Counted from the stretch's first letter, positions 520 to 25,823 are shown. The stretch: DNA of 64,000 nt from an uncultured Planctomycetaceae bacterium (GCA_964427875.1 CAYRVX010000006.1:47222-111221), one strand, 5' to 3'. Notes: generated by a model from the sequence alone, not told the origin. Translations and numbers: made by a program.

Positions 520-1446
520 ATGAGCAGTCTCCCTGAGAACCCACACCCCAGGCCGGAAGACGCCGCCGCGCCGGTAAGCGACGCCTTTCTCGCCGCCGTC
601 CGGCGATTGATCGCACGCCGCGCCTGCAAGGCCTTGGGCTTTGCGAGGCTGGGCAAGGATGAGGTCGAGCAACTGCTGCCCGGCAAGATGCTTCGCACCC
701 GCCTGGCGGCGAGGCTGGCTGCGGCCGGGGCGACAACGGTGAATCGGCGGACGCTGCGGCATGCCTGTGCCGCGACCGAGCTGGTGCACACCGCCAGCCT
801 GTGCCACGACGACGTCGTCGATAACGCCGTGATCCGGCGCGCCAGGCCGGCCCTGTGGCAGACGACCGGGGCGTCGGCGGCGATCCTGATCGGCGACCTC
901 CTGCTGTGCGAGGCGCTGGGGCTGGTCACGGACGTCGAGGGCGGACGCCTCATGCCTGTGTTCGTCGCGAAGGTCAGGGAAGTGATCCGGACGGAGGTCG
1001 AGCAGGAGCTTCTGCTCCGCGGCCGGCGAGTGGACGAGGACGAGTGTATCCGCGTGGCCCGGGGCAAGACCGGGCCGCTGTTTGCCCTCGTCGCGCAGGT
1101 CTGCGGCGGCGAGGAGGCCGGGCTGTCGGAGGCGTTGGAGGAGGCGGGTTACCGGATCGGCACGGCCTACCAGCTCGCCGACGACCTGCTGGACGTGGCC
1201 GGCGACGAGGACGTGGCGGGCAAGACGCTGGGCACCGATTCAATGCGGAGGAAGTTCACGCTTCCCCTTTCCGCCGCCGGCGGGGGGCGCGTTGCGCGGC
1301 GGCACGTAGCCGAGCTGTGCGAATCGGCCCTGACGTGCCTTGACGCCTACCCCGCGGCGCGGAGAGCGTTGGCCGAATTCCTCGCGCGTGATCTCCAGCC
1401 GGTCCTCGACCGGCACCTGGACGTGTGCATGGAGCCTGCCGAATAG
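520..1446 (+). CDS. polyprenyl diphosphate synthase (trans-isoprenyl diphosphate synthase family)
   Basis: 308 aa. It carries both aspartate-rich motifs: LCHDDVVDN (first DDxxD) and QLADDLLDV (second DDxxD). Confidence 0.85.
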   Translation: MSSLPENPHPRPEDAAAPVSDAFLAAVRRLIARRACKALGFARLGKDEVEQLLPGKMLRTRLAARLAAAGATTVNRRTLRHACAATELVHTASLCHDDVVDNAVIRRARPALWQTTGASAAILIGDLLLCEALGLVTDVEGGRLMPVFVAKVREVIRTEVEQELLLRGRRVDEDECIRVARGKTGPLFALVAQVCGGEEAGLSEALEEAGYRIGTAYQLADDLLDVAGDEDVAGKTLGTDSMRRKFTLPLSAAGGGRVARRHVAELCESALTCLDAYPAARRALAEFLARDLQPVLDRHLDVCMEPAE

Positions 1447-1632
1447 CCCCGCCCGCCCGGCGGCAGCGGGGCGCGCCGGGCTGCGTGGCCGCGAGCCGAT
1501 CGATCGGCGCATCTCTCTACGATAACGACACTTGTTCTCCCTCGGCTCGCCTGGGGACGCTCCCTCCGCTCCCGCCGGCGAACCGTTGAGCAATCACCCC
1601 TGCGCGGCAAGGGCTCTCCTTCCGAAAAGGGC

Positions 1633-1659
1633 GGCCGGAACAGCACCGGACCGTTTTTT
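1633..1659 (+). terminator. candidate intrinsic terminator downstream of the polyprenyl synthase gene
   Basis: GGCCGG (1633-1638) pairs with CCGGaCC (1646-1652), with a 7-nt loop, followed by G+TTTTTT (1654-1659). Confidence 0.45.
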
Positions 1660-1686
1660 GTTAAATTTTTTACTTGTGCTTATGCT
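1658..1686 (+). promoter_or_regulatory. candidate sigma70-type promoter for the hdr/nuo/mvh operon
   Basis: TTGTTA (1658-1663), a 17-nt spacer, then TATGCT (1681-1686), inside a conspicuously AT-rich patch (1654-1700) of a GC-rich genome, about 145 nt upstream of the hdrC start. Confidence 0.35.
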
Positions 1687-1829
1687 ATGCTGAATGATGA
1701 AGTCGAACTATCCGTTTGGCATTGTTGTCGCAAGCGGCCGCCAGGTACTGTGCAGCCGTGGTCGGTCCCAGGCCACGGCGTCAGAGACGCGGCTTGGCTG
1801 AACGCAATACCCAGGCAAAGGAGCGTATA

Positions 1830-2399
1830 GTGGCTGCCACCGAGGCCAAGGATCTTAACCGGGAATTCCTGCGGCGGGTCCGCGAGCTGCCGCAGGGGGA
1901 GAAGATCGACCGGTGCATTCAATGCGGGACGTGCTCGGCGTCTTGTCCGACCAGCGGGGCGATGGACTACGGGCCGCGACAGATCATCGCTGCGCTGCGG
2001 GCGGGGATGATCGACCAGGTGCTCGGGTCCAACACCGTCTGGCTGTGCGCATCGTGTTACTCCTGCGCGGTGCGCTGCCCCGCGAAGATCCCCTTTACCG
2101 ACGTGATGTACGAGCTGAAGCGCCTCGGCACCGAGCACGGGATCTACCCCGGCAGGAGCACCAGCGCCGTGATGGCCAAGGCCTTCAGCGAAGTGGTCGA
2201 CAGCCATGGCCGAAACGCCGAACCGAAGCTGCTTCGCAAGTACTACCTGCGGACCAACCCGCTGAAGATGCTGGGGCAGATGAAGCTGGTCATGCGGATG
2301 ATGGCCCGGGGCAGGATCGACCTTTTCCCCCACACGATCAAAGGGATCGACGGTCTCCGCGAGATGATGACCGCGGCCGAGGAGAACGGAAGAAAATGA
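1830..2399 (+). CDS. hdrC: heterodisulfide reductase subunit C (2x[4Fe-4S] ferredoxin-like)
   Basis: CIQCGTCSASCP and CASCYSCAVRCP motifs. GTG start at 1830 is preceded by AAGGAG (1818-1823). The longer ORF from 1716 has an Arg/Ala-rich, non-protein-like N-terminus. Confidence 0.85.
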   Translation: MAATEAKDLNREFLRRVRELPQGEKIDRCIQCGTCSASCPTSGAMDYGPRQIIAALRAGMIDQVLGSNTVWLCASCYSCAVRCPAKIPFTDVMYELKRLGTEHGIYPGRSTSAVMAKAFSEVVDSHGRNAEPKLLRKYYLRTNPLKMLGQMKLVMRMMARGRIDLFPHTIKGIDGLREMMTAAEENGRK

Positions 2400-3289
2400 A
2401 CACGACCAACAAGACTGCCTTCCCTTATTTCCCCGGGTGTTCGGCCATGGCGGCGAACAGGGCGTACGACGTGTCGACCCGGAGCGTCGCCGGCGTCCTC
2501 GGGGTCGAGCTGGTGGAGCTGGACGACTGGAACTGCTGCGGCGCGACGGCTTACGTGGCGCTCAACGAGAAGCACGCTCTCGTCCTCTCGGCGCGAAACC
2601 TGGCCCTGGCCGAAAAGGCCGGCGACGACTTGGTGACGATCTGCAACGGCTGCTATCTGGCCCTCAGGAAGGCCAACGAGCACATCATCGAGGATGCCAA
2701 GGTGCAGGCCCAGGTCCAGGAGGCCCTGTCCGCTGGCGGCATGAGCTACGAAGGCGGCGTCCGCGTTCGGCACTTGCTCGACGTGGTGGTCAACGACCTG
2801 GGCGAGGAGGCCGTGCGCCCGCACGTCACCAACCCGCTGACCGGCCTGAAGGTGGCCCCGTATTACGGCTGCCAGATCACCCGGCCCTTCAGCGATATCG
2901 ACGACGCCGAAGACCCGCAGATGATGGACAGGCTCATCGAGTGGCTCGGCGCCGAGGCCGTGCCCTTTGGCATGAAGGCCAAATGCTGCGGGGGGTTGAT
3001 GATGACCACACAGCCGGAGATCGGTCTGGAACTCACCGGGAAGATCCTGAAGAACGCCCGGGACGGGGGCGCCGATTGTGTCATAACGACTTGTCCGCTC
3101 TGCCAGATCAACCTGGAGGCCTACCAGGCTGAAGTGGGCGAGGCGATGGGCGCCGACTGCGAGATTCCGGTCCTTTACTTCACGCAACTGATGGGCGCGG
3201 CCTTCGGGCTCGGCTCGGAGGACCTGGCCCTGAAAGATTCCCTCACGCCGGTTGAGGCGTTGTTTGCCGAGAAGGTGCAGGTTCCATGA
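2396..3289 (+). CDS. hdrB: heterodisulfide reductase subunit B (two CCG domains)
   Basis: MNTTNKTAFPYFPGCS..., with two CCG motifs (DDWNCCGATAY and KAKCCGGLMM) plus CPLCQINL. The ATG at 2396 overlaps the hdrC stop (ATGA). Confidence 0.9.
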   Translation: MNTTNKTAFPYFPGCSAMAANRAYDVSTRSVAGVLGVELVELDDWNCCGATAYVALNEKHALVLSARNLALAEKAGDDLVTICNGCYLALRKANEHIIEDAKVQAQVQEALSAGGMSYEGGVRVRHLLDVVVNDLGEEAVRPHVTNPLTGLKVAPYYGCQITRPFSDIDDAEDPQMMDRLIEWLGAEAVPFGMKAKCCGGLMMTTQPEIGLELTGKILKNARDGGADCVITTCPLCQINLEAYQAEVGEAMGADCEIPVLYFTQLMGAAFGLGSEDLALKDSLTPVEALFAEKVQVP

Positions 3290-4590
3290 ACAGCAACAAC
3301 GGAAAAGAGCGGATCGGGGTCTACATCTGCCACTGCGGGACGAACATCTCCCACACGGTGGACGTCAAGGCGGTCGCCGACTACGCCCGCACGCTCCCCG
3401 GCGTCGTTAAGGTGCGGGAGTACAAGTACATGTGCTCCGATCCGGGACAGGACCTGATCAAGAAGGACATCGAGGAGGACCGGCTCACTCGCGTGGTGGT
3501 CTCCTCGTGCTCGCCGCTGATGCACGAGGAGACTTTCCGCGACGCGTGTGAGGACGCCGGGCTGAACCGCTTCCTCTTCCAGATGTCCAACATCCGCGAG
3601 CAGTGCTCCTGGGTGCATTCGGACCGCGCAAAGGCCACCGCCAAGGCCAAGCGCCTGATCAGGGCGGCCGTCCGGCGGGTCAGTTGGCACAAGCCGATGG
3701 AGGTCCGCGAGGCACCCGTCCACCCCGACGCGCTCGTCGTCGGGGCCGGCATCGCCGGGATCGAGGCGGCCCTGAAACTCGCCGACGCCGGCAAGAAGGT
3801 CTACCTCGTCGAGAAGGAGCCCTCGATCGGCGGGCACATGGCCAAGTTCGACAAGACCTTCCCCACCCTGGACTGCGCCGCCTGCATCCTCACCCCCAAG
3901 ATGGTGCAGGTGGGCAAGCACCCCAACATCAAGCTGATGACCTACTCCGAGGTCGAGGAGGTCTCGGGGTACGTCGGCAACTTCAAGGTGAAGATCCGCC
4001 GGAAGGCGCGGTTCATCGACGAGGAGAAGTGCACCGGCTGCGGCGATTGCATCCAGAACTGCCTCGTCCGGAACAAGGCTTATCTCGAGCCGCCGGTCAT
4101 CCCGGAGGTCCAGATCGACGAAGATAAGCGCGCCCTCGTGGACCGGATCGCCGGCAAGTATGAGGGCGACGGCGCGACGCTGGTGCCCATACTTCAGGAC
4201 ATCAGCGCCGAACTGAACTGGCTGCCGCCGGAAGTGCTGGGGAGGGTCTCCGAGGTAAAGGGCATACCGCTGGAGCACGTGATCCGGCTGGCGACGTTCT
4301 ACAAGTCGTTCAGCCTCAAACCGAGGGGAAAGCACGTGATAAACGTGTGTCTCGGCACCGCCTGCCACGTGAGGGGCGCCCCGAGGATCGTGGACAGGCT
4401 CGAGCGGGAGCTGGGCATCAACGTCGGAGAGACTACCAGCGACATGAAGTTCACCCTGGAGACCGTTCGGTGCGTCGGCTGTTGCGGCCTGGCGCCGGTG
4501 GTCATGGTGGGCGACGAGTTCTACGGGAAACTGACTCCGGGCAAGGCGGCCAAGCTGATCGACACGCTCGCCGCAGCTGATAAAGGATGA
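3286..4590 (+). CDS. fusion protein: HdrA N-terminal half (N-terminal Cys domain, FAD-binding GxGxxG, first ferredoxin Cys motif) joined to a NuoE/HoxE-type thioredoxin-like [2Fe-2S] domain
   Basis: aa 1-260: IGVYICHCGTNI...YKYMCSDPGQ...NIREQCSWVH, VVGAGIAGIEAAL, FPTLDCAACILTPKM, EEKCTGCGDCIQNC (HdrA-like). aa about 280-434: LVPILQDI...VCLGTACHVRG...VRCVGCCGLAPVV (NuoE-like 4-Cys pattern). ATGA overlap with hdrB. Confidence 0.85.
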   Translation: MNSNNGKERIGVYICHCGTNISHTVDVKAVADYARTLPGVVKVREYKYMCSDPGQDLIKKDIEEDRLTRVVVSSCSPLMHEETFRDACEDAGLNRFLFQMSNIREQCSWVHSDRAKATAKAKRLIRAAVRRVSWHKPMEVREAPVHPDALVVGAGIAGIEAALKLADAGKKVYLVEKEPSIGGHMAKFDKTFPTLDCAACILTPKMVQVGKHPNIKLMTYSEVEEVSGYVGNFKVKIRRKARFIDEEKCTGCGDCIQNCLVRNKAYLEPPVIPEVQIDEDKRALVDRIAGKYEGDGATLVPILQDISAELNWLPPEVLGRVSEVKGIPLEHVIRLATFYKSFSLKPRGKHVINVCLGTACHVRGAPRIVDRLERELGINVGETTSDMKFTLETVRCVGCCGLAPVVMVGDEFYGKLTPGKAAKLIDTLAAADKG

Positions 4591-4593
4591 ACC

Positions 4594-4977
4594 ATGGCGA
4601 AGATCAAGATTGAGGACCTGGAGAACATCCGTGAGCGCATGGCGAAGACCATGTCTCTGCGTGGCGGCGAGACTCGCGCGAAGATCACCGTGCACATGGG
4701 CACGTGCGGGATCGCCGCCGGCGCCAGGAAGGTCATGAGCGCCCTGATGAAGCTGCTGGAGCAGCGGGACGAGACGGACATCGTCGTCACGACCTCGGGC
4801 TGCGCCGGGCTTTGCAGCCGCGAACCCATGATGACGGTGGAGATCGAGGGAAAGGCGCCGGTGAAGTACGTCGACCTCGATGAGGCCAAGGCGGAGAAGA
4901 TCTTCCGGGAACACGCCGTGTCCGGGACCGTGGTCGAGGAGTACGCACTCGCCGTCGGCAGCGAGCGGCGCGGATAG
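4594..4977 (+). CDS. thioredoxin-like [2Fe-2S] ferredoxin (HndB-like small subunit)
   Basis: 127 aa. KITVHMGTCGIAAGA...TTSGCAGLCSREPMM is the pattern typical of the small (2Fe-2S) subunit found in Hnd/HydABC-type operons. Confidence 0.8.
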   Translation: MAKIKIEDLENIRERMAKTMSLRGGETRAKITVHMGTCGIAAGARKVMSALMKLLEQRDETDIVVTTSGCAGLCSREPMMTVEIEGKAPVKYVDLDEAKAEKIFREHAVSGTVVEEYALAVGSERRG

Positions 4978-5004
4978 CAGCCTGGAAACCAAGGAGACAC
5001 GCCG

Positions 5005-6831
5005 GTGAAGTCATATCGAATGCACCTGATGCTCTGCGGCGGGACGGGATGCGTCTCCAACAGAGCGTTCGATGTCAGGGAAGCGCTGGAAAAAGAGCTC
5101 AAGAAGCACGACCTCCAGGATGAGATCGCCATCGTGGTGACGGGCTGCAACGGCTTCTGCGCGCAGGGGCCGGTGATGGTGGTCCAGCCCGACGGGATCT
5201 TCTATCAACTGCTTACCGTCAAGGACGTCCCCAACCTCGTGGAGGAGCATTTCCTCAAGGGCAGGCCCGTCGAGCGGCTGATGTTCACGCCTCCCGGCGA
5301 GGAGGCGCCCATGCCCAAGATGAGCGACATCGGCTTCTTCGCGAAGCAGCGGCTGATCGCCCTGAGGAATCGCGGGCTTATAGATCCCGAGAAGATCGAA
5401 GAGTACATCGGCCGCGGAGGCTACTCGGCGCTGGCCAAGGCCCTCACGCAGATGGAGCCCCAGGACATCGTGGAAGAGATCAAAAAGTCCGGGCTCCGCG
5501 GCAGGGGCGGCGCCGGGTTCCCCACCGGGCGAAAGTGGGAACTGTGCAGGAACGCCAAGGGCGACGTGAAGCACCTCGTCTGCAACGGCGACGAGGGCGA
5601 TCCCGGCGCGTTCATGGACCGCAGCATCATCGAGTCCGATCCCCACTCGGTCCTGGAGGGGATGATCATCGGCGCGCGGGCGATCGGCGCTTCTCACGGC
5701 CATGTCTACATAAGGAACGAGTACCCCCTTGCCCTCAAGAGACTCTCTCTGGCGATCGAGCAGGCCAGGGAGTACGGCCTGCTCGGCAAGGATATCCTGG
5801 TCGCGGGCTTCGACTTCGACATCTCGGTCCAGCGCGGGGCCGGGGCGTTCGTCTGCGGGGAAGAGACGAGCCTGCTCAGCTCGCTGCAAGGGCTGCCGCC
5901 GGAGCCTCGTGTCAGGCCGCCTTTCCCGGTGGAGTCCGGCATACGGGGCGAGCCCACCAACATCAACAACGTTGAGACCTGGGCCACCGTGGCTGAGATC
6001 ATCAGCCGCGGGGCCGACTGGTTCGCCGGCATCGGGACCGAGACGAGCAAGGGAACCAAGGTGTTCAGCCTCGTCGGCAAGGTGAGAAACACGGGCCTGG
6101 TGGAGGTCCCGATGGGCATCACCGTGCGCGAGATCGTCTTCGACATCGGCGGGGGGATACCCGAAGACAAGGAGTTCAAGGCCGTCCAGACCGGCGGGCC
6201 GTCCGGCGGCTGCATCCCCGCGAGCCTGCTGGACCTGCCCATCGACTACGAGAAGCTCGCCGAGGCGGGCTCGATGATGGGCTCGGGCGGACTGATCGTG
6301 ATGGACGAGGACACCTGCATGGTTGACCTGGCCAGGTACTTCCTCGACTTCCTGAACGACGAGTCCTGCGGCAAGTGCACCGCCTGCCGCGAGGGGGTGG
6401 ACGTGATGTGTGGCATCCTGACGAACATCTGCGAGGGCAACGGCAAGGAAGGCGACATCGAGCTTCTCGAGGAGCTGGGCAACGCGGTCAAGGACGGCTC
6501 TCTCTGCGGGCTCGGCGCGACGGCGCCGAACCCGGTCCTGACGACCATCCGCTACTTCCGCGACGAGTACGAGGCCCACATCAGGGACAAGAGCTGCCCG
6601 GCCGGCGTCTGCAAGGCCCTCTTCCACTACAAGATTGATGCGGAGAAATGCACCGCCTGCGGGCTCTGCAAGAAGCAGTGCCCCTACGATGCCATTGAGG
6701 GCGCGAAGGAAGTTCCTCACACGATCGACATGGAGAAATGCACCACGTGCGGTGCGTGCTATGACGCGTGCAATTTCGACGCCGTAATGAAGGTCCCGAA
6801 CGGCAAGGTGAGAGTGCCGGCTCAAGTGTGA
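5005..6831 (+). CDS. NuoF/HndC/HydB-like NAD(P)H-binding flavoprotein subunit (N-terminal [2Fe-2S] Trx-like domain, FMN/NADH core, C-terminal 2x[4Fe-4S])
   Basis: GRGGAGFPTGRKWE (FMN site), CNGDEGDPGAFMDR, ESCGKCTACREG (N3-type cluster), C-terminal CTACGLCKKQCP and CTTCGACYDACN. GTG start with AAGGAG 8 nt upstream. Confidence 0.9.
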   Translation: MKSYRMHLMLCGGTGCVSNRAFDVREALEKELKKHDLQDEIAIVVTGCNGFCAQGPVMVVQPDGIFYQLLTVKDVPNLVEEHFLKGRPVERLMFTPPGEEAPMPKMSDIGFFAKQRLIALRNRGLIDPEKIEEYIGRGGYSALAKALTQMEPQDIVEEIKKSGLRGRGGAGFPTGRKWELCRNAKGDVKHLVCNGDEGDPGAFMDRSIIESDPHSVLEGMIIGARAIGASHGHVYIRNEYPLALKRLSLAIEQAREYGLLGKDILVAGFDFDISVQRGAGAFVCGEETSLLSSLQGLPPEPRVRPPFPVESGIRGEPTNINNVETWATVAEIISRGADWFAGIGTETSKGTKVFSLVGKVRNTGLVEVPMGITVREIVFDIGGGIPEDKEFKAVQTGGPSGGCIPASLLDLPIDYEKLAEAGSMMGSGGLIVMDEDTCMVDLARYFLDFLNDESCGKCTACREGVDVMCGILTNICEGNGKEGDIELLEELGNAVKDGSLCGLGATAPNPVLTTIRYFRDEYEAHIRDKSCPAGVCKALFHYKIDAEKCTACGLCKKQCPYDAIEGAKEVPHTIDMEKCTTCGACYDACNFDAVMKVPNGKVRVPAQV

Positions 6832-6862
6832 AACAGGCCCCGGGAACGAGCAACAGGCGGGC

Positions 6863-7288
6863 ATGCAGATCGCAGCCGCCGCGTCCCGCGACGGGATGTT
6901 GGCTGTGGCCGGCCGGGAGATGATCACGCCGATGACGCTTGACGAGGCCCGAGACATCCTGGAAGCGGACGTCATTGTCGGCACCGATCTGGAGAAGATC
7001 GATGTGGAAATGGGCTGTGGGGCCGACCTGATGAGCGATGTGTTGGCCTTCACGAAAACGGGCGCCCTTCTCCTGACCGGGCTGACCAACGCCCAGGCGG
7101 TTCGCACCGCCGAGATGGCGGACGTCGTCGGCATCTGCTTCGTTCGAGGAAAGAGGCCGCCTCAAGAGACGGTCGAGCTGGCCAGGCGGAGCGGCATGCC
7201 GCTGCTGGCCACGCGACTGCCGATGTTTGAGAGCTGCGGCCGCCTCTATCGCAACGGGTTGGAAGGATGTTCTGAGAGGAACGAGTGA
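6863..7288 (+). CDS. DRTGG-domain protein (start may be the ATG at 6920 or 6932)
   Basis: ...MTLDEARDILEADVIVG...GCGADLMSDVLAF...ALLLTGLTNAQAVRTAEMADVVGICFVRG. It is a paralog of the ORF at 8231-8605. Confidence 0.7.
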   Translation: MQIAAAASRDGMLAVAGREMITPMTLDEARDILEADVIVGTDLEKIDVEMGCGADLMSDVLAFTKTGALLLTGLTNAQAVRTAEMADVVGICFVRGKRPPQETVELARRSGMPLLATRLPMFESCGRLYRNGLEGCSERNE

Positions 7289-8334
7289 GCTCCACCAAGG
7301 ATGTGCATGTGGGCCCGGACATAAAGACAACCAAGACCCAGGAGATGGTTTACGAGATGAAGGTCGGCGACGTGATGACCAAGGACGTCATCACGGTGCG
7401 ATCCAAGGACCCTTTGGGCTCCTTGCGAGACGTGTTCCGCTCGAACCGCATCTCCGGGCTGCCCGTGCTCGATCGGGGCCGGCTGGTCGGCCTCATCAGC
7501 CTCGAGGACTTCATCAAGTGGCTGGCCGACAGGCAGGAAGACTGTGCGATAGAAGACAAGATGACCGCAGACGTCGTGACCTTGTACGAGGATGACCCGC
7601 TGGTGCTGGCGGTCGGCCGGTTCGAGAAGAGCGGCCTGGGGAGGTTCCCCGTCATCGACCGCGATCAGGGCAAGCTCGTGGGGATACTGACCAAGGGCGA
7701 CGTCATCGAGGGGCTCCTGAAGGAGCTCGAGATCGACTATCAGGAAGAGGAGATCCACCGCTACCGGGCAAGTCACATTTTCCAGGACATTGAGGCGGAC
7801 GACACGACGCTCCTGTTCCAATACGATGTCAAGGGACAGGATTTCAGACAGGCCGGCTCCGGCGCCAGCCGCCTCAAACGGACGCTGAAGCACCTGGGCA
7901 TACGCCCCGACGTCGTGCGGCGGATAGCGATCGCCAGCTATGAGGCGGAAATGAACCTGGTCATCTTCACGGAGGGCGGACAGATGCGTGCCAGGGTCCG
8001 GCCGGCCAGGGTGTTCATCGAGATTGAGGACTCCGGGCCGGGCATACCTGACATCGAGAAGGCGATGGAGCCGGGCTACTCCACGGCCCCGGACTCGGTC
8101 AGGGAGCTGGGCTTCGGCGCGGGGATGGGCCTGGTCAACATCAAGAAGAGCGCCGATGTGTTCCACATTGATTCGAAACCAGGCAAGGGAACGATTCTGA
8201 AGGCCTCTTTCTTCACCAACGAGAAGAACCATGAAACTCAGTCGTCTGGTGAGCGAGCTCGGTCTGGAAGTAAGGTCAGCCCGGAGAAGCCTCGAAAACG
8301 AGGTGACCGGAGGCCACGCCAGCGATCTGCTTAG
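7285..8334 (+). CDS. CBS-pair + GHKL (HATPase_c, RsbW/anti-sigma-kinase-like) ATPase protein
   Basis: Two CBS repeats (VMTKDVITV...GLPVLD, MTADVVTL...RFPVIDRDQGKLVGILTKGDV), then IEIEDSGPGIPDIEKAMEPGYST...GFGAGMGLVNIKK (N-, G1- and G2-box-like). The GTG start overlaps the previous stop (GTGA). The last about 35 aa overlap the next gene. Confidence 0.75.
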   Translation: MSSTKDVHVGPDIKTTKTQEMVYEMKVGDVMTKDVITVRSKDPLGSLRDVFRSNRISGLPVLDRGRLVGLISLEDFIKWLADRQEDCAIEDKMTADVVTLYEDDPLVLAVGRFEKSGLGRFPVIDRDQGKLVGILTKGDVIEGLLKELEIDYQEEEIHRYRASHIFQDIEADDTTLLFQYDVKGQDFRQAGSGASRLKRTLKHLGIRPDVVRRIAIASYEAEMNLVIFTEGGQMRARVRPARVFIEIEDSGPGIPDIEKAMEPGYSTAPDSVRELGFGAGMGLVNIKKSADVFHIDSKPGKGTILKASFFTNEKNHETQSSGERARSGSKVSPEKPRKRGDRRPRQRSA

Positions 8335-8605
8335 CGACGTCATCGGCAACAGCCGGGAAGGTGATATCTGGATTACACTGCAAGTTCACGTGAACGTCGT
8401 GGCCGTGGCAAGCATGAAGGAGCTTTCCGGGATCATACTCGTCAATGGAAGAGAGCCGGACGGCGACACCATCGAGAAGGCAGAGGCCGAAGGCATACCG
8501 GTCATGGTGAGCGGGCTGCCCGCGTTTGAGCTCGTCGGGCGTCTTTACGGCCTCGGGCTCCGGGGCGTGAGCGCCGAAGGCGCAGCCGGGCCGGCCGGCG
8601 CGTGA
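8231..8605 (+). CDS. DRTGG-domain protein
   Basis: MKLSRLVSELGLEV...GGHASDLLSDVIGN...GIILVNGREPDGDTIEKAEAEGIPVMV. 124 aa, the typical size of stand-alone DRTGG proteins. Confidence 0.75.
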   Translation: MKLSRLVSELGLEVRSARRSLENEVTGGHASDLLSDVIGNSREGDIWITLQVHVNVVAVASMKELSGIILVNGREPDGDTIEKAEAEGIPVMVSGLPAFELVGRLYGLGLRGVSAEGAAGPAGA

Positions 8606-8627
8606 TGCAGGAGAAGTTTCGGCGGAC

Positions 8628-9818
8628 ATGAAAGAGCTGAGAGCGGACTTGCACGTACATACGTGCCTTTCGCCGTGTGCAGAGGCCGAGATGGTGCCCT
8701 CGGCGATCGTGAGGCAGGCAAGGGCCGCAGGCTTGGATATGATCGGGATATGTGACCACAATTCGGCTGAGAACGTCGCCGCCGTGGCGAGGGCCGGCGA
8801 GAGAGAGTCGATCTCCGTCCTGCCGGGGATCGAGATCACCTCTCGCGAAGAGGTGCATATCGTCGGCCTGTTCCCCACAGAGACCGAGGCCCTGCGCGTT
8901 CAGGCGGTGGTGGACCGGCGCCTGCCTGGAGAGAACGACGAGGAGGCGTTCGGCCCGCAGACGATCGTTGATGAATGGGACCGACAGACCGGCAGGAGCA
9001 CGAAGCTGCTGATAGGGGCCACCGACCTGGCCGTCGAGGAGGTCGTGGAGGCCATTCACGATTGCGGCGGCCTGGCCGTCGCGGCCCACGTCGACCGCGA
9101 GAGGTTCAGTATCGTCGGCCAGTTGGGCTTCATCCCGAAGGGGCTGAAGCTGGATGCGGTCGAGGTGTCGGCCGGAGCGTCGGCCAGAACGTGCTACGAG
9201 TTTCCCGTGATCACGTCCTCGGACGCCCACCGCCTTACGGACATCGGCCGGGGCTCAACCTTGTTCCTCGCCGAAGAGGCGAGCATCGGCGAGATCCGCA
9301 AGGCCCTGCGCGAGGAGGACGGCCGAAGGGTAGCCACCAATATGCAAGACCTCTCGCTGCACATCCTGGACATCGTGGAGAACTCCATCGCGGCGTCGGC
9401 GACCCGCGTCAAGATCGTGATCGAGGAGGACTCGCGAAGCGACCTGTTGTCGCTGGAGATCCAGGACAACGGCCGGGGCATGGACGCCAAGGCACGGGAG
9501 AAGGCCCTCGACCCGTTCTTCACCACGAGGACGACGCGGAAGGTCGGCCTTGGCCTTCCCCTGCTGGCCCAGGCCGCACGGGACACCGGCGGGGACCTCG
9601 AGCTGACTTCCGAACCAGGCCGGGGCACCACGATCAGGGCGGTCTTTCAGCTCAGCCACCCCGACTGCAAGCCACTGGGGGACATCACCGAAACACTGCG
9701 GACAATCCTGTGCGGTCAACCGGAACTGGACCTGGAGTTCGCATACAGGAAAGACTCGAAACTGATAGCCGCCCTTGGCGGCAACCAGTCGGCCAACGAG
9801 GAGTCAGAGAATGGTTAG
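8628..9818 (+). CDS. PHP (polymerase/histidinol-phosphatase) domain fused to a GHKL-type ATPase domain
   Basis: N-terminus: ADLHVHTCLSPCAE...GICDHNS...AAHVDRE...SSDAH (PHP metal ligands). C-terminus: LHILDIVENSI...LEIQDNGRGMD...GLGLPLL...EPGRGTT (HATPase_c). Confidence 0.8.
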   Translation: MKELRADLHVHTCLSPCAEAEMVPSAIVRQARAAGLDMIGICDHNSAENVAAVARAGERESISVLPGIEITSREEVHIVGLFPTETEALRVQAVVDRRLPGENDEEAFGPQTIVDEWDRQTGRSTKLLIGATDLAVEEVVEAIHDCGGLAVAAHVDRERFSIVGQLGFIPKGLKLDAVEVSAGASARTCYEFPVITSSDAHRLTDIGRGSTLFLAEEASIGEIRKALREEDGRRVATNMQDLSLHILDIVENSIAASATRVKIVIEEDSRSDLLSLEIQDNGRGMDAKAREKALDPFFTTRTTRKVGLGLPLLAQAARDTGGDLELTSEPGRGTTIRAVFQLSHPDCKPLGDITETLRTILCGQPELDLEFAYRKDSKLIAALGGNQSANEESENG

Positions 9819-11577
9819 TTTGACGATCGACGGCAACACCGTGGAAGTGGAAGAGGGCTCGACCCTTCTCCAGGCCGCCGAGAAGCTGGGGATACAGATC
9901 CCCACTCTCTGCCACAACAAGGCGCTGGCGCCCTACGGTGCGTGTCGCATCTGCCTGGTGGAAGTGGAAGATGAGCGCGGCTCGAAGCTCCAGGCCTCCT
10001 GCACGTATCCCGCCCAGGAGGGGCTCGTGGTCAAGACCTCGACCGACCGCGTGCTGAGGACCCGCAAGATCATGATGGAGCTCATGCTGGCCCGATGCCC
10101 GGAGGTCGAGTCGATCAAGCAGATGGCCGCGGAGATGGGGATCGAAGAGCCCCGCTTTCCCAAGAAGAACAAGGACTGCATCCTCTGCGGTCTCTGTGTG
10201 AGGGTCTGCCAGGAGAGGATGAACATAGGCGCGGTCAACTTCGTCAACCGGGGCACCGAGAAGCTGATCTCGCCCCCCTACGACAAGCACTCCCCCATCT
10301 GCATAGCCTGCGGGGCGTGCAAGGTGGTCTGCCCGACAGACTGCATCGATCTGTCGGAGATCACGGCCCACACGCCCAGGCCGATCCCCTTGGAGTTCGA
10401 CGAGGGGCTCAGCAGCCGCTCGAGCGTCTACGTCCCCTTCGCGCAGGCAGTGCCCAACGTGCCGGTCATCGACAAGGACAGTTGCATCCGTCTGAAGACC
10501 GGAGAGTGCGGGGCGTGCGAGGCGTTCTGCGAGGCCGGCGCGATCGTCTTCGACCAGGAGGACTCCATCGACGAGGTTGACGTCGGCGCGATCATCGTGG
10601 CGACGGGCTTCAGGCTCTTCGACAGCAGGCAGATCACGCGGTACGGCTACGGGAAGTTCGACAACGTCCTCAGCTCTCTGGAGTTCGAGAGGCTCAGCCA
10701 CGCCAGCGGGCCGACGGGGGGGCGGGTCCTCACGAAGGACGGCCGCGAGCCGCGGGCCGTCGCCATCCTCCACTGCGTCGGCAGCCGCGATGAGAACTAC
10801 GCCGAGTACTGCTCCCGTGTCTGCTGCATGTACTCGCTGAAGTTCGCACACCTCGTCAGGGAGAAGACCGACGCGGAGGTCTACAACTGCTACATCGACA
10901 TCCGGGCGTTCGGCAAGGGCTACGAGGAGTTCTACAAGCGCATCCTCGGCGAGGGGGTGCACTTCATCCGCGGCAAGTGCGCCGAGGTGACCGACGTGGC
11001 CGAGACGCCCGAGGAGGAGGGCAAGCTCGTCGTCGTCGCCGAGGACACCCTTCTGGGCATCACCCGCCGCTTGCCCGTGGACATGGTCATCCTCTCGGCG
11101 GCGTTGGTGCCGGGCGAGGACTCCGACAAGCTCGCCAGGACCTTCTCGATCAACTGCGCCCAGGGCGGGTTCTTCCTCGAGAAGCACCCCAAGCTCGCAC
11201 CGGTGGACTCCATCTCGGACGGCATCTTCCTCGCCGGCGCCTGCGTGGGCCCGAAGGACATCCCCGACTCGGTGGCCCAGGGCGCCGCGGCCGCGGCCGG
11301 GGCGCTCAGCCTCATCGACAGCGGAAAGGTCGTCCTCGAGCCCATCACCGCCGAGATCGACGAAGAACGCTGCGCCGGGTGTCGGCTGTGTATCGCCAAC
11401 TGCCCCTACGCCGCGATTGACTATGATGAAGAAAAGAAGGTCTCGGTGGTCACCGAGGAACTCTGCAAGGGATGCGGCACGTGCGTGGCCGGCTGCCCCT
11501 CCGGGGCCGCCCACCAGAAGAACTTCGAGGACGAGCAGATCTTCTCGGAGATCGAGGGCATCCTGATCGGAGCCTGA
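9811..11577 (+). CDS. fusion protein: plant-type [2Fe-2S] + 2x[4Fe-4S] module (NuoG/HydA/FdhA N-terminal-like) joined to the C-terminal half of HdrA
   Basis: aa 1-180: MVSLTIDGNTVEV...LCHNKALAPYGACRICLVEVE, CILCGLCVRVC, CIACGACKVVCP. aa about 195-588: VYVPFAQAVP, DVGAIIVATGF, HCVGSRDENYAEYCSRVCCMYS, FLAGACVGPKDIPDSVAQG, CAGCRLCIANCP, CKGCGTCVAGCP (HdrA-like). No H-cluster motifs. The ATG at 9811 overlaps the previous stop. Confidence 0.85.
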   Translation: MVSLTIDGNTVEVEEGSTLLQAAEKLGIQIPTLCHNKALAPYGACRICLVEVEDERGSKLQASCTYPAQEGLVVKTSTDRVLRTRKIMMELMLARCPEVESIKQMAAEMGIEEPRFPKKNKDCILCGLCVRVCQERMNIGAVNFVNRGTEKLISPPYDKHSPICIACGACKVVCPTDCIDLSEITAHTPRPIPLEFDEGLSSRSSVYVPFAQAVPNVPVIDKDSCIRLKTGECGACEAFCEAGAIVFDQEDSIDEVDVGAIIVATGFRLFDSRQITRYGYGKFDNVLSSLEFERLSHASGPTGGRVLTKDGREPRAVAILHCVGSRDENYAEYCSRVCCMYSLKFAHLVREKTDAEVYNCYIDIRAFGKGYEEFYKRILGEGVHFIRGKCAEVTDVAETPEEEGKLVVVAEDTLLGITRRLPVDMVILSAALVPGEDSDKLARTFSINCAQGGFFLEKHPKLAPVDSISDGIFLAGACVGPKDIPDSVAQGAAAAAGALSLIDSGKVVLEPITAEIDEERCAGCRLCIANCPYAAIDYDEEKKVSVVTEELCKGCGTCVAGCPSGAAHQKNFEDEQIFSEIEGILIGA

Positions 11578-11601
11578 ACCACTCGAACGGAGAACGCATA
11601 G

Positions 11602-12045
11602 ATGGCCGAAGAGCAGTTCCAACCGAAGATCGTCGGGTTCCTTTGCCGCTGGTGCTCGTACACGGGGGCGGACCTGGCCGGCACCAGCCGCATCCAGTAC
11701 CCCTCGAACCTGGCCGCCATCCGGGTGATGTGCTCGGGCCGCGTCGATCCCACGTTCGTGGTCAAGGCGCTCAGCGACGGCGCCGACGGCGTCCTGATCG
11801 CAGGCTGCCATCCCGGCGACTGTCATTACTCGGAAGGCAACTACAAGGCAATGCGCCGCTACCCGATGCTCCTGAAACTCCTGGAGCAGTTCGGCATCGA
11901 GCGCCAGCGCGTTCGCCTCGAGTGGATCTCGGCCTCCGAGGGCGAGCGGTTCGCCGAGGTCGTCAGGGAGTTCACCGAGCAGATCAGGTCGCTGGGCCCG
12001 CTCAACTGGAACGAGAGGGTCGCGGCCTGTTGCGAAGCAACATAG
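11602..12045 (+). CDS. mvhD: MvhD/FlpD-type hydrogenase delta subunit ([2Fe-2S] electron-transfer adaptor)
   Basis: KIVGFLCRWCSYTGADLAG...VMCSGRVDP...LIAGCHPGDCHY, the characteristic MvhD Cys pattern. Confidence 0.85.
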   Translation: MAEEQFQPKIVGFLCRWCSYTGADLAGTSRIQYPSNLAAIRVMCSGRVDPTFVVKALSDGADGVLIAGCHPGDCHYSEGNYKAMRRYPMLLKLLEQFGIERQRVRLEWISASEGERFAEVVREFTEQIRSLGPLNWNERVAACCEAT

Positions 12046-12054
12046 GGACGAGAA

Positions 12055-13023
12055 ATGGCAAAACCGAAAGTGGCATTCTATTGGTGTGCCTCCTGCGGCG
12101 GCTGCGAAGAGACCGTCGTGGACCTGGCCGAGGACATCCTCAAGGTCGTGGAGGCGGTGGACATCGCGCTCTGGCCGGTGGCCCTGGACTTCAAGCTCAA
12201 GGACGTCCGCGCCTGGGAGCCGGGCGAGGTGGCCGTGGCCTTCATCAACGGGGCCGTGCGCCTCAGCGAGCAGGAAATGTGGGTCAAACTGCTGCGGGAG
12301 AAATGCCCGCTGGTGGTGGCCTTCGGCTCGTGCGCCCACCTGGGCGGGATTCCCGGCCTGGCGAACTTCACCAGCCGGGAGGAGATCTTCGCGAACAAGT
12401 ATCACCGTTCGCCCTCGGTGGACAATCCCGACGGCGTGGTGCCGCAGGAAGAGACGAACGTGGCCGGCTACGACCTCGAGCTGCCCAGGTTCTGGAAGGA
12501 CGTCAAGGCGCTCGACCAGGTGATCGACGTGGATTACTACCTCCCGGGCTGCCCGCCGCCGCCGGAACTGGTGGCCAAGGCCATCAACGCCATCCTCGCC
12601 GGCGACCTGCCGCCCAAGGGCTCGGTCCTCGCCCCGGAGAAGGCCCTCTGCGAGACCTGCCCGCGAAACGACTCCAAGCCCGAGGACCTGACCATCGCCT
12701 CCTTCAAGCGGGTCGCGACAAGCACGCCGGACCCGGAGAAGTGCTTCCTGGCCGACGGCTTCCTGTGCATGGGGCCGGCCACCCGCGGCGGCTGCGGCGA
12801 ACGCTGCATCAACGCCAACATGCCCTGCCGCGGCTGCTTCGGGCCCACGCCCGACGCCCTCGACGCCGGCCTCAAGATCCTCAGCGCCGTCGCCTCCCGC
12901 GGCGAGGCCGACACCGCCGAGTCCGCCGAGGCGCTGGCAGAGTCCCTTGTCGATCCGCTGGGCACGTTCTACCGTTTCTCCCTGCCGGCTTCCATGCTCA
13001 GGCGGCGAGTCAGTAAGGAATGA
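12055..13023 (+). CDS. mvhG: [NiFe] hydrogenase small subunit, cytoplasmic group-3 (MvhG-like)
   Basis: KVAFYWCASCGGCEE...AFGSCAHLGGIPG...GCPP...CRGCFGP. No Tat signal. Adjacent to mvhD and the large subunit. Confidence 0.85.
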   Translation: MAKPKVAFYWCASCGGCEETVVDLAEDILKVVEAVDIALWPVALDFKLKDVRAWEPGEVAVAFINGAVRLSEQEMWVKLLREKCPLVVAFGSCAHLGGIPGLANFTSREEIFANKYHRSPSVDNPDGVVPQEETNVAGYDLELPRFWKDVKALDQVIDVDYYLPGCPPPPELVAKAINAILAGDLPPKGSVLAPEKALCETCPRNDSKPEDLTIASFKRVATSTPDPEKCFLADGFLCMGPATRGGCGERCINANMPCRGCFGPTPDALDAGLKILSAVASRGEADTAESAEALAESLVDPLGTFYRFSLPASMLRRRVSKE

Positions 13024-14489
13024 AGACCATGAGTAAGCGAATCACCATAGACCCCATCACCCGCCTCGAAGGCCACGGCAAGATCGAGATCTTCCTCAAC
13101 GACGCCGGCGACGTGGAGCGGGCCTTCTTCCAGGTGCCCGAGCTGCGCGGCTTCGAGACGTTTTGCCTCGGCCGGCCGGCCGAGGAGATGCCGCGCATTA
13201 CGCCGCGGATCTGCGGCGTCTGCCCCACGGCCCACCACATGGCGTCCACCAAGTGCCTGGACGACCTCTGGAAGGTCGACCCGCCTCCGGCGGCGAAGAA
13301 GCTCCGCGAGCTGGCATACAACGCGTTCATGCTCGAGGACCACTATATCCATTTCTTCTACCTCGCCGCCCCCGACTTCGTCGTCGGACCCACCGCGCCC
13401 GCGGCGGAGCGCAACATCCTCGGCGTCATCGGCAAGGTCGGCCTGGAGATCGCCGGGAAGGTCATCCGCGTCCGCCGCGAGACGCGCCAGATGATGCAGA
13501 CCATGATGGGCAAGGTGATCCATCCGGTCTTCGGCCTGCCGGGCGGCGTGTCGCGCGGCATCAGCGAGGAGGAGCGCGGCGAGTTCCTCAAGACGGCCGA
13601 TTTCGCCGTCGAGTTCGCCCAGTTCGCCCTCCAGCTCTTCGACGACGTGGTCCTGAAGAACGAGGATTACCTCAACCTCGTCCTGAACGACGCGTACGCC
13701 CACAAGACGTACTACATGGGCCTGGTGGACGAGGACAACAAGGTCAACTTCTACGACGGGAAGGTCCGCGTCGTCAGCCCCACGGGCGAGGAGGTGGCCA
13801 AGTTCGCGCCGCGGGAGTACCTCGATCACATTGCCGAGCACGTCGAGCCTTGGAGCTACGTCACCTTCCCCTACCTCAAGAACATCGGCTGGAAGGGCTT
13901 CGTGGACGGCCCCGACAGCGGCGTCGTCCGGGCCGCGCCGCTGGCGCGGCTCAATGCCGCCGACGGCATGGCCACGCCGCTGGCCCAGCAGGCCTACGAG
14001 AAGATGTACGAGACGCTCGGCGGCAAGCCCGCCCACGCAACGCTCGCCTTCCACTGGGCGAGGCTCGTCGAGGCGCTCTACTCCGCCGAACGCATGAAGG
14101 AGCTGCTCGAGGACCCCGAGATCACCAGCGACGAGATCCGCAACGAGCCCACGGAAACGCCCTCCGAAGGCGTCGCCATCGTCGAGGCCCCGCGAGGGAC
14201 CCTCGTCCACCATTACTTCACCGACGACGACGGCATCCTGACGAAGGTCAACCTCATCGTGGCCACCAACTTCAACGCCGCGCCCATCGCGATGTCCGTC
14301 GAGAAGGCCGCCAAGGGCATGATCCACGGCGGCGAGGTCAACGACGGGCTGCTGAACATGGTGGAGATGGCCTTTCGCGCGTACGATCCGTGCCACGCCT
14401 GCGCCACCCACAGCCTGCCCGGGCAGATGCCGCTCGTGGCCACGATCCGCGACAGCTCCGGGAAGGTGATCCGGGAAATCCGGCGGTGA
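13020..14489 (+). CDS. mvhA: [NiFe] hydrogenase large subunit, cytoplasmic group-3 (MvhA-like)
   Basis: N-terminal ITRLEGHG and RICGVCPTAHH (L1 motif). C-terminal DPCHACATHS (L2 motif), followed by a cleavable extension. The start may instead be the ATG at 13029. Confidence 0.9.
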   Translation: MKTMSKRITIDPITRLEGHGKIEIFLNDAGDVERAFFQVPELRGFETFCLGRPAEEMPRITPRICGVCPTAHHMASTKCLDDLWKVDPPPAAKKLRELAYNAFMLEDHYIHFFYLAAPDFVVGPTAPAAERNILGVIGKVGLEIAGKVIRVRRETRQMMQTMMGKVIHPVFGLPGGVSRGISEEERGEFLKTADFAVEFAQFALQLFDDVVLKNEDYLNLVLNDAYAHKTYYMGLVDEDNKVNFYDGKVRVVSPTGEEVAKFAPREYLDHIAEHVEPWSYVTFPYLKNIGWKGFVDGPDSGVVRAAPLARLNAADGMATPLAQQAYEKMYETLGGKPAHATLAFHWARLVEALYSAERMKELLEDPEITSDEIRNEPTETPSEGVAIVEAPRGTLVHHYFTDDDGILTKVNLIVATNFNAAPIAMSVEKAAKGMIHGGEVNDGLLNMVEMAFRAYDPCHACATHSLPGQMPLVATIRDSSGKVIREIRR

Positions 14490-16972: not shown

Positions 16973-17247
16973 TTCGGCTGTCTCCCGGCCGCTGAGGGTC
17001 CGGCCAATGGACATACGCCCCGCCGCGAGGGAGGTCAAATCAATTCGCGCCGGTCGTCGGCCGGGAATCGGGGGCTTGCGGCCAGCGGGTCGTGCCGCCT
17101 CTTTTTGGGGGGTCTGATCCCGAAGGGATCGGATAGGATATGGGCGCAGCGAGGAGGAGGCGGCCGGCGGGTTCGGCGGCAAAACGCGAGCTGGGTCACC
17201 AGATGAAGGCAATATCGCCCGGGCGCGGGCGTTAAACGGAATGGCAC

Positions 17248-25789: not shown

Positions 25790-25823
25790 CGTGCCGGCCG
25801 ACGCACGCCCGGGAGAACCCACG

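Follow-up and report, generated by a model that had tools for sequence, protein, structure and literature searches.

An Hdr-Mvh operon of an uncultured Planctomycetaceae bacterium encodes HdrA in two halves, each fused to a predicted Bfu-type iron-sulfur domain

The stretch of DNA considered here (64,000 nucleotides; the window) comes from an uncultured Planctomycetaceae bacterium (GCA_964427875.1 CAYRVX010000006.1:47222-111221). Positions 1716-14489 hold one tightly packed operon of 13 genes, all on the plus strand, in which neighbours overlap or are separated by gaps of 3-31 nucleotides; the G+C content of the region is 62-71%. The operon begins with genes of the hdrC and hdrB type and ends with mvhD, mvhG and mvhA. 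Between them the gene for the bifurcating flavoprotein HdrA is divided in two. The open reading frames (ORFs) at 3286-4590 and 9811-11577 encode proteins of 434 and 588 amino acid residues, here called P1 and P2, which carry the N-terminal and the C-terminal half of HdrA, respectively. The half in P1 is followed by a NuoE-type domain, the half in P2 is preceded by a domain of the BfuA type, and a gene lying between them encodes a protein of the BfuB type, all three belonging to the Bfu (HydABC) family of bifurcating enzymes. Domains were assigned with Pfam and NCBIfam profiles.

P1 contains the N-terminal 40% of HdrA. In phmmer searches its residues 8-268 match the HdrA chains 8rvu (residues 12-273, E 1e-101) and 5odc_A (residues 4-258, E 4e-100). 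This half (3286-4068) stops shortly past motif 1, the first of the two cysteine motifs of the inserted ferredoxin domain, which by its quoted boundaries spans roughly residues 237-314 of M. thermolithotrophicus HdrA, between the two parts of the flavin domain. The N-terminal Cys domain (residues 8-135) aligns with that of HdrA, with Cys15, Cys17, Cys50 and Cys75 invariant. The GxGxxG sequence of the flavin adenine dinucleotide (FAD) site is located at residues 153-158, and the invariant Cys200, in the block FPTLDCAAC, aligns with Cys197 of M. thermolithotrophicus HdrA. Motif 1 consists of Cys249, Cys252, Cys255 and Cys259; it is invariant in all 14 fusion homologues that were aligned for P1 and is retained by every free-standing N-half found in other genomes.

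The homology of P1 to HdrA ends at about residues 261-268. A linker (residues 262-282 approximately, 4069-4131) shows no homology to HdrA or to the NuoE family; it varies in length and sequence among homologues and has a low predicted local distance difference test (pLDDT) score. From about residue 283 the chain continues as a thioredoxin-like [2Fe-2S] domain of the NuoE/HydC/BfuC type (4132-4590). Residues 283-428 match 8a6t_C (E 1e-44), NiFe-HydC 7t2r_C (E 2e-41) and also NfnC 9n5u_C, and the Pfam domain 2Fe-2S_thioredx (PF01257) covers residues 286-428 with E 6e-48. Cys355, Cys360, Cys396 and Cys400 are invariant in the 14 homologues, and the C-terminal domain of P1 is the predicted equivalent of BfuC.

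P2 begins with a domain comprising Fer2_4 (E 4e-21) and 2x[4Fe-4S], spanning residues 1-181 (9811-10365), which aligns without a gap to residues 5-185 of WorA (9mqx_A, E 4e-37). HydA1 (8a6t_A, residues 3-204) also aligns with the N-terminus of P2 and is about 20 residues longer, and the best profile match of this part is the NCBIfam model of [FeFe] hydrogenase group A6, over positions 1-206. The cluster motifs are those of a [2Fe-2S] cluster (A1) and of two [4Fe-4S] clusters (Cys123..Cys133 and Cys164..Cys174); the segment for the His-ligated cluster A3 is missing. Since WorA also has no cluster A3 and the alignment is free of gaps, P2 is placed among the Bfu enzymes that have only A1, A2 and A4, and its N-terminal domain is taken from this alignment as the BfuA equivalent with that cluster set. 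According to the 2022 survey of the Bfu family, such enzymes pass electrons to their core via A4. The A4-type motif CIACGACKVVCP occupies residues 164-175 of P2, and HdrA resumes only about 15 residues later.

Residues 189-585 of P2 (10375-11577) match residues 265-653 of the HdrA chain 8rvu (phmmer, E 6e-117). This half retains PIPLEFDEG...VYVPFAQAVP, the segment that comes after motif 1 in ordinary HdrA, and motif 2 of the inserted ferredoxin domain, Cys225, Cys233, Cys236 and Cys240, which is invariant in the 23 homologues aligned for P2. In the block CVGSRD..CSRVCCMYSLK, Lys344 aligns with Lys409 of M. thermolithotrophicus HdrA and is likewise invariant (23/23). The C-terminal 2x[4Fe-4S] domain of HdrA is located at residues 514-566.

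The two chains are complementary. The NCBIfam HdrA2 profile of 777 positions is covered by P1 over positions 1-257, by P2 over 253-640 and by the MvhD protein over 643-774, and P1 and P2 are therefore complementary pieces of one HdrA. The halves score 389 and 444 bits, respectively, against a cut-off of 1100, and in place of one continuous polypeptide at the curated family score there are two genes 5.2 kb apart. Taken together they contain the N-terminal [4Fe-4S] Cys domain with the Cys197 equivalent (on P1), a TrxR-like FAD domain with the Lys409 equivalent spread over the two chains, an inserted ferredoxin domain with two four-Cys motifs, all eight cysteines of which are invariant in the two alignments, and the C-terminal 2x[4Fe-4S] domain. 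The two chains share the FAD fold between them, GxGxxG lying on P1 and the CVGSRD/CCMYxxK part on P2, and neither half has it complete. The break is located inside the inserted ferredoxin domain, between its first and second Cys motifs, at about residues 258-265 of M. thermolithotrophicus HdrA. The E-values of the matches on which this assignment depends, from 1e-37 to 1e-117, are far beyond chance.

A first-pass annotation of the same DNA had proposed that the two ORFs jointly rebuild one HdrA, and the complementary alignments and the coverage of the HdrA2 profile bear this out. It had recognized in P1 the HdrA Cys domain, the FAD site, the first ferredoxin motif and a complete NuoE/HoxE-type domain, and in P2 a [2Fe-2S] domain, two CxxCxxCxxxC motifs, the resumption of HdrA and the C-terminal 2x[4Fe-4S] domain; all of these were recovered with Pfam and phmmer. 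It had placed the P1 junction at 4069-4126, where alignment gives about 4069-4131, and the P2 junction at 10351-10396, within which the aligned position of about 10354-10377 falls. Two independent, complete HdrA paralogues, named beforehand as the outcome that would contradict the proposal, were rejected, the alignments being complementary. The idea that P2 alone completes the inserted ferredoxin domain was also rejected, because both upstream motifs are needed for the 2x[4Fe-4S] part of BfuA; a further reason is the conservation of the P1 motif even in free-standing N-halves.

Between the BfuC-type and BfuA-type domains the operon encodes a small thioredoxin-like [2Fe-2S] protein of 127 residues resembling HndB (4594-4977; PF01257 matches weakly, with E 4e-5 and 23.9 bits where the cut-off is 24.8), which occurs in only part of the related loci, and a NuoF homologue of 608 residues (5005-6831). 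The latter aligns end to end with A. mobile NiFe-HydB (7t2r_B, residues 2-597 of 597, E 6e-250), and also with 7q4v_B, 8a6t_B, WorB (9mqx_B) and 9n5u_B. It consists of 2Fe-2S_thioredx (residues 5-81), Complex1_51K with the site for flavin mononucleotide (FMN) and reduced nicotinamide adenine dinucleotide (NADH), NADH_4Fe-4S, and two Fer4 domains (residues 542-593), and by this composition it is predicted to be a full-length HydB/BfuB of the bifurcating type. All three parts of a Bfu enzyme are thus found: a BfuB having a NuoF core with N-terminal [2Fe-2S] and C-terminal 2x[4Fe-4S], a NuoE-like [2Fe-2S] BfuC, here fused to the HdrA N-half, and the N-terminal domain of BfuA with A1 and its [4Fe-4S] clusters.

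The NuoF-like subunit could instead act simply as an NAD(P)H dehydrogenase or diaphorase. The module would then be non-bifurcating, and the whole would be an H2:NAD(P)+/disulfide oxidoreductase with NAD(P)+ in the place of ferredoxin. This seems quite improbable, the N-terminal [2Fe-2S] and C-terminal 2x[4Fe-4S] being marks of HydB/BfuB as against NuoF/HoxF and the alignment with structurally characterized bifurcating enzymes running from end to end, although NuoF homologues are part of many non-bifurcating enzymes, some HydABC enzymes are non-bifurcating according to a review, and the NfnB-like insertion found at the same place in other HdrA proteins suggests that coupling of the exit to pyridine nucleotides is a general theme.

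Four sensor-type genes follow the bfuB-like gene. The first encodes a DRTGG-domain protein (6863-7288; weak PF07085 match, E 8e-5, below cut-off) and is syntenic in Planctomycetota loci. The second encodes a CBS-CBS-HATPase_c protein (7285-8334; CBS E 8e-28, HATPase_c E 4e-8, HATPase_c_2 E 2e-6), in which Pfam detected no HisKA domain; the third a further DRTGG-like protein (8231-8605; weak PF07085 match, E 1e-3), which is conserved in Planctomycetota loci; and the fourth a PHP-HATPase_c protein (8628-9818; HATPase_c E 4e-17, PHP and PHP_C E 1e-7). Homologues of the last are all at least 59% identical among the 120 matches listed, and the one whose context was examined again stands in an Hdr-Bfu-Mvh operon. 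With their CBS domains and HATPase domains of the anti-sigma-kinase type, these genes suggest control by energy or redox state, which could be post-translational or transcriptional. The ORFs 7285-8334 and 8231-8605 overlap by 104 nucleotides, and a comparable overlap of 47-55 nucleotides between tblastn hit ends is seen in L001, L003, L004, L009, L014, L021 and L027 (L designating related loci, described below). It may be that the basic, low-complexity tail of the first of these two ORFs is non-coding, or that the second gene begins further downstream.

The gene list given for this 5.2-kb block in the first-pass annotation (HndB-like, NuoF-like, DRTGG, CBS-CBS-HATPase, DRTGG and PHP-HATPase) agrees with Pfam. 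Its description of the block as sitting inside hdrA is fair at the gene level, since other genomes have unsplit hdrC-hdrB-hdrA-mvhD-G-A operons that are flanked in the same way (L035, L039, L047-49, L066, L079). Topologically, the BfuC-BfuB-BfuA unit in its entirety is inserted into the loop behind motif 1 of the inserted ferredoxin domain of HdrA.

The genes on both sides of the divided hdrA are those of an Hdr-Mvh system. The hdrC-like gene (1716-2399, start codon uncertain) encodes a 2x[4Fe-4S] protein that matches CoB_CoM_SS_C with 81 bits (E 6e-23; equivalog cut-off 160). The hdrB-like gene (2396-3289) encodes a CCG-domain subunit with a predicted disulfide-reducing site, matching CoB_CoM_SS_B with 218 bits (E 1e-64; equivalog cut-off 345). 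Both scores thus lie below the equivalog level that marks the HdrBC of methanogens specific for CoM-S-S-CoB; for this reason the disulfide is probably not CoM-S-S-CoB. The start of hdrB (MNTTNK, at about 2396) overlaps the hdrC stop, and its own stop overlaps the start of P1 in the sequence ATGA at 3286-3289. The ORF listed at 1913-3289 (458 residues) includes a spurious Arg/Asp-rich N-terminal extension of about 160 residues that runs over hdrC in another frame.

Downstream of P2, mvhD (11602-12045) encodes the [2Fe-2S] adaptor between hydrogenase and HdrA (FlpD E 5e-56, VhuD E 5e-38). It is followed by genes for the small and large subunits of a [NiFe]-hydrogenase of the group 3c type, mvhG (12055-13023; VhuG E 1e-63, Oxidored_q6) and mvhA (13020-14489; VhuA E 1e-130, with a VhuU-like C-terminus). 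The translated mvhA contains the metal-site motifs RICGVCPTAHH and DPCHACATH. The large subunit with its CxxC motifs, the small subunit and an MvhD with the FlpD domain together make up a group 3c MvhAGD, and the scores of all Mvh subunits are below the methanogen equivalog cut-offs. No gene for a hydrogenase maturation protease follows mvhA within the window; one is present in L081.

The operon has unrelated flanks, with a polyprenyl synthase upstream and a sulfatase downstream. A scan of 1300-15100 for promoters and terminators gave nothing exceeding shuffled expectation. After mvhA there is the sulfatase gene at 14947-16434 and a CYTH-domain gene on the minus strand at 16424-17257, and the same two families follow the L081 operon. 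A second sulfatase gene is located at 25791-27311; the sulfatases fit a polysaccharide-degrading host among the Planctomycetota. By Pfam, 20 other genes of the window are of the housekeeping kind or encode sulfatases and give no hint to the disulfide substrate. An ORF of 1815 residues on the minus strand, 58514-63961, has a third-position G+C of 0.95.

Both fusions are found well beyond this genome. At full-length coverage, the P1 fusion is represented by at least 120 clusters at 90% identity (63-94% identical to P1), and the P2 fusion also by at least 120 (57-92% identical to P2). The database names are generic: 'NAD(P)H-dependent oxidoreductase subunit E', '2Fe-2S iron-sulfur cluster-binding protein' and 'HdrA-like polyferredoxin'. 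The first-pass annotation had treated the architecture as not known to be described, while allowing that it might exist in databases. In the searchable full-text literature, whose limited coverage leaves absence unproven, no description of a split HdrA or of an Hdr-Mvh-Bfu type was found; the sequences themselves are abundant in public databases under such names. The modules are known ones in a new, conserved and widespread combination. Clustering at 50% identity left four full-length representatives of the P1 fusion (P0059, P0241, P0244, P0271) together with free-standing N-halves of about 290 residues.

A profile scan over one genome per GTDB species gave 80 loci, whose gene content was determined by tblastn with the window proteins. 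In 31 of them, from about ten phyla, a fused P2 is preceded by a nuoF homologue and an HdrA N-half, and these 31 are all of the loci that contain a fused P2. The hdrC-hdrB pair stands immediately upstream in 27 of the 31, and mvhD and mvhA immediately downstream in 20, most of the others ending at contig ends. The metagenome-assembled genomes (MAGs) concerned are labelled Planctomycetota (several orders), Nitrospirales, Gemmatimonadales, Armatimonadota, Zixibacteria, Fischerbacteria, Zipacnadia, Coatesbacteria, Eisenbacteria and Sumerlaeota; one is a Pseudomonadota MAG and some are labelled 'archaeon'.

This distribution bears on the possibility that the HdrA fragments never reassemble, being relics reused as iron-sulfur or scaffold parts of two separate enzymes, one containing NuoE and the other BfuA, or an artefact of assembly or frameshift. 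The single-chain models are of low confidence precisely in the half-domains, as decaying sequence would be. However, the halves are 57-94% identical across phyla with every cofactor ligand invariant, each of the junctions recurs in at least 120 independent clusters and 31 genome loci show them as well, an HdrA N-half is upstream in 31 of 31 loci with fused P2, and neither chain could bind FAD alone with the FAD fold split. This explanation is highly improbable and already largely refuted. An assembly chimera or a pseudogene is ruled out by the conservation of the junctions in hundreds of assemblies.

The related loci differ in composition. A minimal form, hdrCB-P1-nuoF-P2-mvhDGA without sensor genes, is found for example in L005, L006, L011-13, L018 and L075; among the loci examined, a form with four sensor genes like that of the window was seen only in Planctomycetota. 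In another form, seen in several phyla, the N-half is a free-standing protein of 280-310 residues that ends 20-35 residues past motif 1, with NuoE encoded by a separate gene (L019, L020, L022, L023, L053, L060, L032/34, L080, L036/37). The N-half thus has two conserved states, one of them being its fusion to NuoE; P2 is a fusion in every case. In L038, L042 and L046 (Candidatus Sumerlaeota) and in L036 and L037 (Eisenbacteria) a sensor block lies between the free-standing N-half and the separate NuoE gene, and in L037 this block holds a HydS-like protein of the [FeFe]-hydrogenase type (Fe_hyd_lg_C and PF04060 'FeS').

The same domain of HdrA can also be interrupted by an in-frame NfnB/GltD-like insertion. 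The HdrA of a Planctomycetota locus, L031:1572-4964, has 1130 residues, with Fer4_20 and Pyr_redox_2 at about residues 298-690 according to Pfam, and is 76-77% identical to the two halves from the window. A second one, also from Planctomycetota (L045:9384-12383, 999 residues), has an NfnB/GltD-like insertion by visual inspection that appears shortened. Both stand in hdrCB-hdrA-mvhDGA operons, and L045 also has nuoE-nuoF upstream of hdrC. The loci L034:3076-16618 and L032:1971-12556 each hold a split-HdrA/Bfu set and, directly behind it, a second HdrA whose halves are separated by about 1.6 kb of inserted sequence; the size of this gap was the sole criterion for assigning it to the NfnB-insert type. 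L034 has a single mvhD-G-A set downstream and one hdrC-hdrB upstream, and in these loci one HdrBC and one hydrogenase may serve two different HdrA variants. A further operon variant is found in L081:4290-13418 (JGI metagenome 3300033148). Its P1 of 292 residues has no HdrA N-terminal Cys domain, begins at GxGxxG and keeps motif 1 and NuoE, and its P2 of 1082 residues consists of the BfuA N-domain, the HdrA C-half and then a second complete HdrA-like unit, in tandem as in BamE. Downstream of it follow mvhD, mvhG, mvhA, a HycI protease, a Rex-like gene (Put_DNA-bind_N and CoA_binding), CYTH and sulfatase genes.

Starting from the observed domain anatomy, complementarity of the halves, conservation of ligands and synteny across phyla, we infer the physical assembly, the electron path, its direction, the substrates and the physiological role. 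The operon most likely encodes a single cytoplasmic supercomplex, here named Mvh-Hdr-Bfu, and the products probably form one complex in which an HdrA assembled in trans feeds, or is fed by, a Bfu core. HdrA would consist of two polypeptides that must reassemble, P1 contributing motif 1 together with the N-terminal cluster domain and the beginning of the FAD fold, and both [4Fe-4S] clusters of the inserted ferredoxin domain would be ligated by cysteines of P1 and P2. BfuCBA would be attached at the cut, with BfuC fused to the N-half or encoded right behind it, BfuB free, and BfuA fronting the C-half.

The electrons would be bifurcated at FAD, those of high potential passing through HdrC to HdrB for reduction of the disulfide. 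It is accepted that low-potential electrons leave HdrA by the inserted ferredoxin domain, and since Bfu is attached on both sides of this domain, the simplest reading is that they would go from its clusters to A4 of BfuA and then pass via A2 and A1 to the flavin/iron-sulfur site of BfuBC, which would reduce NAD+ and ferredoxin. In this scheme free ferredoxin would not be reduced directly at the exit of HdrA. Such a link between the HdrA FAD and an FMN/NAD(H) module, which the first-pass annotation had also proposed, fits the anatomy.

As a net result, part of the low-potential output would appear as NADH, and H2 oxidation would be feasible at low H2 pressure with both reductants supplied; the machine could equally work in reverse. 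Taking E0'(H+/H2) as -414 mV (about -296 mV at 10 Pa H2), NAD at -280 mV and, from the literature, the disulfide at -140 mV and ferredoxin at -500 mV, it is estimated that the passage of half of the low-potential electrons to NAD+ would move the mean acceptor potential from about -320 to about -265 mV. With this shift, H2 oxidation would be favourable at environmental H2, yielding NADH and reduced ferredoxin. The H2-uptake direction and its low-H2 rationale are put forward tentatively.

The same supercomplex may run in the opposite direction, with Bfu confurcating NADH and reduced ferredoxin into HdrA through the inserted ferredoxin domain while the hydrogenase evolves H2 and/or HdrBC reduces the disulfide. 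It would then be a fermentative redox valve and not a system for H2 uptake, which we consider unlikely. Bfu/HydABC enzymes are reversible, and a HydBC-type module is the confurcating input in benzoyl-CoA reductase; however, the MvhD-side route is taken here by MvhD and MvhAG. The host resembles a polysaccharide-degrading fermenter of the Planctomycetota, with sulfatases in the window, a Rex-like gene for an NADH sensor stands behind the L081 operon, and sensor-type genes are found inside the Planctomycetota operons. Nevertheless, full reversal needs thiol oxidation at HdrB and hence a disulfide sink, and the sequence fixes the direction neither way.

If electrons do pass from HdrA to Bfu, the system might be a natural two-stage bifurcation cascade, the first stage splitting electrons from H2 at the HdrA FAD and the second lying at the mechanistically different Bfu site, with the hand-over taking place within the protein. 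In the second stage the reduction of NAD+ would pay for one half of the electrons, and the other half would be driven well below -500 mV. This extension is possible but rather doubtful.

Several points weigh against an Mvh-Hdr-Bfu supercomplex working in the manner proposed. The association of P1 with P2 and a single complex of the 13 products are predictions, as are the direction of flow and the thermodynamic rationale. The single-chain models have a mean pLDDT of 62.9 for P1 and 64.0 for P2, with minima in the half FAD domain and at the junctions. HdrB and HdrC, lying below the equivalog cut-offs, are homologous to their methanogen counterparts but do not point to a particular disulfide substrate. 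In a rough neighbour-joining tree of the concatenated HdrA halves (62 sequences, no support values) the split, NfnB-insert and canonical forms are interleaved, and the split forms are not one clean clade. Three loci of Candidatus Sumerlaeota (L038, L042, L046) have the split HdrA and Bfu without adjacent hdrC-hdrB. Finally, the only solved precedent, a class II benzoyl-CoA reductase, is wired differently, its Bfu-type module feeding HdrA through an MvhD-like adaptor.

How bifurcating enzymes hand over low-potential electrons, and whether bifurcation modules can be chained, are open questions of anaerobic bioenergetics. The operon suggests that a second coupling, with other wiring, occurs commonly among uncultured Planctomycetota, Nitrospirota, Gemmatimonadota, Armatimonadota, Zixibacteria and others. 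If the proposed arrangement is correct, many bacterial 'Mvh-Hdr' (group 3c hydrogenase) annotations in MAGs from sediment and groundwater would need to be re-read as H2-linked producers or consumers of NADH or ferredoxin, and nature would offer in this system a test of the HdrA domain by which low-potential electrons leave. An evolutionary series would be represented by the free-standing, fused and NfnB-insert forms, with the inserted domain as a hot spot for docking and insertion. Should the cascade also hold, this would be an example of coupled bifurcation independent in its wiring from benzoyl-CoA reductase and far more widespread, with a new kind of inter-subunit ferredoxin domain in which each [4Fe-4S] cluster is ligated by two polypeptides.

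The operon may be compared with the systems to which its parts belong. All six subunit types of the MvhAGD-HdrABC complex of methanogens (5ODC, 8RVU, 7BKB) are shared; the flanking gene order is that of the unsplit bacterial and archaeal hdrC-hdrB-hdrA-mvhD-G-A, and the HdrA ligands, including Cys197 and Lys409, are conserved. The difference is that HdrA here is made of two polypeptides and that BfuCBA sits where free ferredoxin is thought to be reduced.

In the operons of [FeFe]-hydrogenases of the hndABCD/hydABC type, the order hndA-B-C-D corresponds to a NuoE-like protein, a small [2Fe-2S] protein, a NuoF-like protein and a subunit starting with [2Fe-2S] and 2x[4Fe-4S]. The block in the window mirrors this order, with the exception that P2 has no H-cluster domain and carries the HdrA C-half in its place; some related loci have a HydS-like Fe_hyd_lg_C gene in the sensor block. 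The block presumably derives from an operon of this type.

Compared with the Bfu family as a whole (FeFe-HydABC, NiFe-HydABCSL, NfnABC, WorABCSL), the BfuB and BfuC of the window are of full length and close to solved members. However, BfuC and BfuA are fused here to the halves of another bifurcating flavoprotein, and the 'third substrate' would be the low-potential arm of HdrA and not a small molecule. The 2022 survey distinguishes hydrogenase, formate, NADPH, F420, aldehyde, CO, pyruvate, quinone, rubrerythrin and Bam types and leaves 17 BfuB clades unassigned; its text and the supplement consulted name no Hdr- or Mvh-linked type.

HdrA9-11 of the anaerobic methanotrophic archaea ANME-1 carry an NfnB-like insertion within their inserted ferredoxin domain (Chadwick et al. 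2022, PMC9012536). The domain that is cut in the window is thus interrupted by a module that is linked to pyridine nucleotides and is potentially bifurcating. There it is one inserted domain in a continuous polypeptide, whereas here it is a three-subunit module in a split host gene.

The class II benzoyl-CoA reductase BamB-I (Bam-Bfu), described in a cryo-EM preprint (10.64898/2026.04.10.717634), couples a HydBC-type module to an HdrA-type module, and the coexistence of two bifurcation modules in one complex was, according to that preprint, previously unreported. It is the only described complex joining an HdrA-type FAD bifurcation module with a module of the HydBC/Bfu type, and its BfuA-type subunit belongs to the A1, A2, A4 class, as does P2. 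In that enzyme the input is BamGHI, from which electrons reach the FAD through BamI, the C-terminal ferredoxin domain and BamF, which is MvhD-like; its HdrA is unsplit and forms a fused tandem dimer, and the output is the tungsten ring reductase. Pfam and NCBIfam found no AOR-type gene (the BamB/BamC tungsten catalytic module) among the genes of the operon, and its Bfu module is not joined through an MvhD-like adaptor. In the window the [NiFe]-hydrogenase would be located at the input and HdrBC at the output, with the Bfu module placed on the inserted ferredoxin domain.

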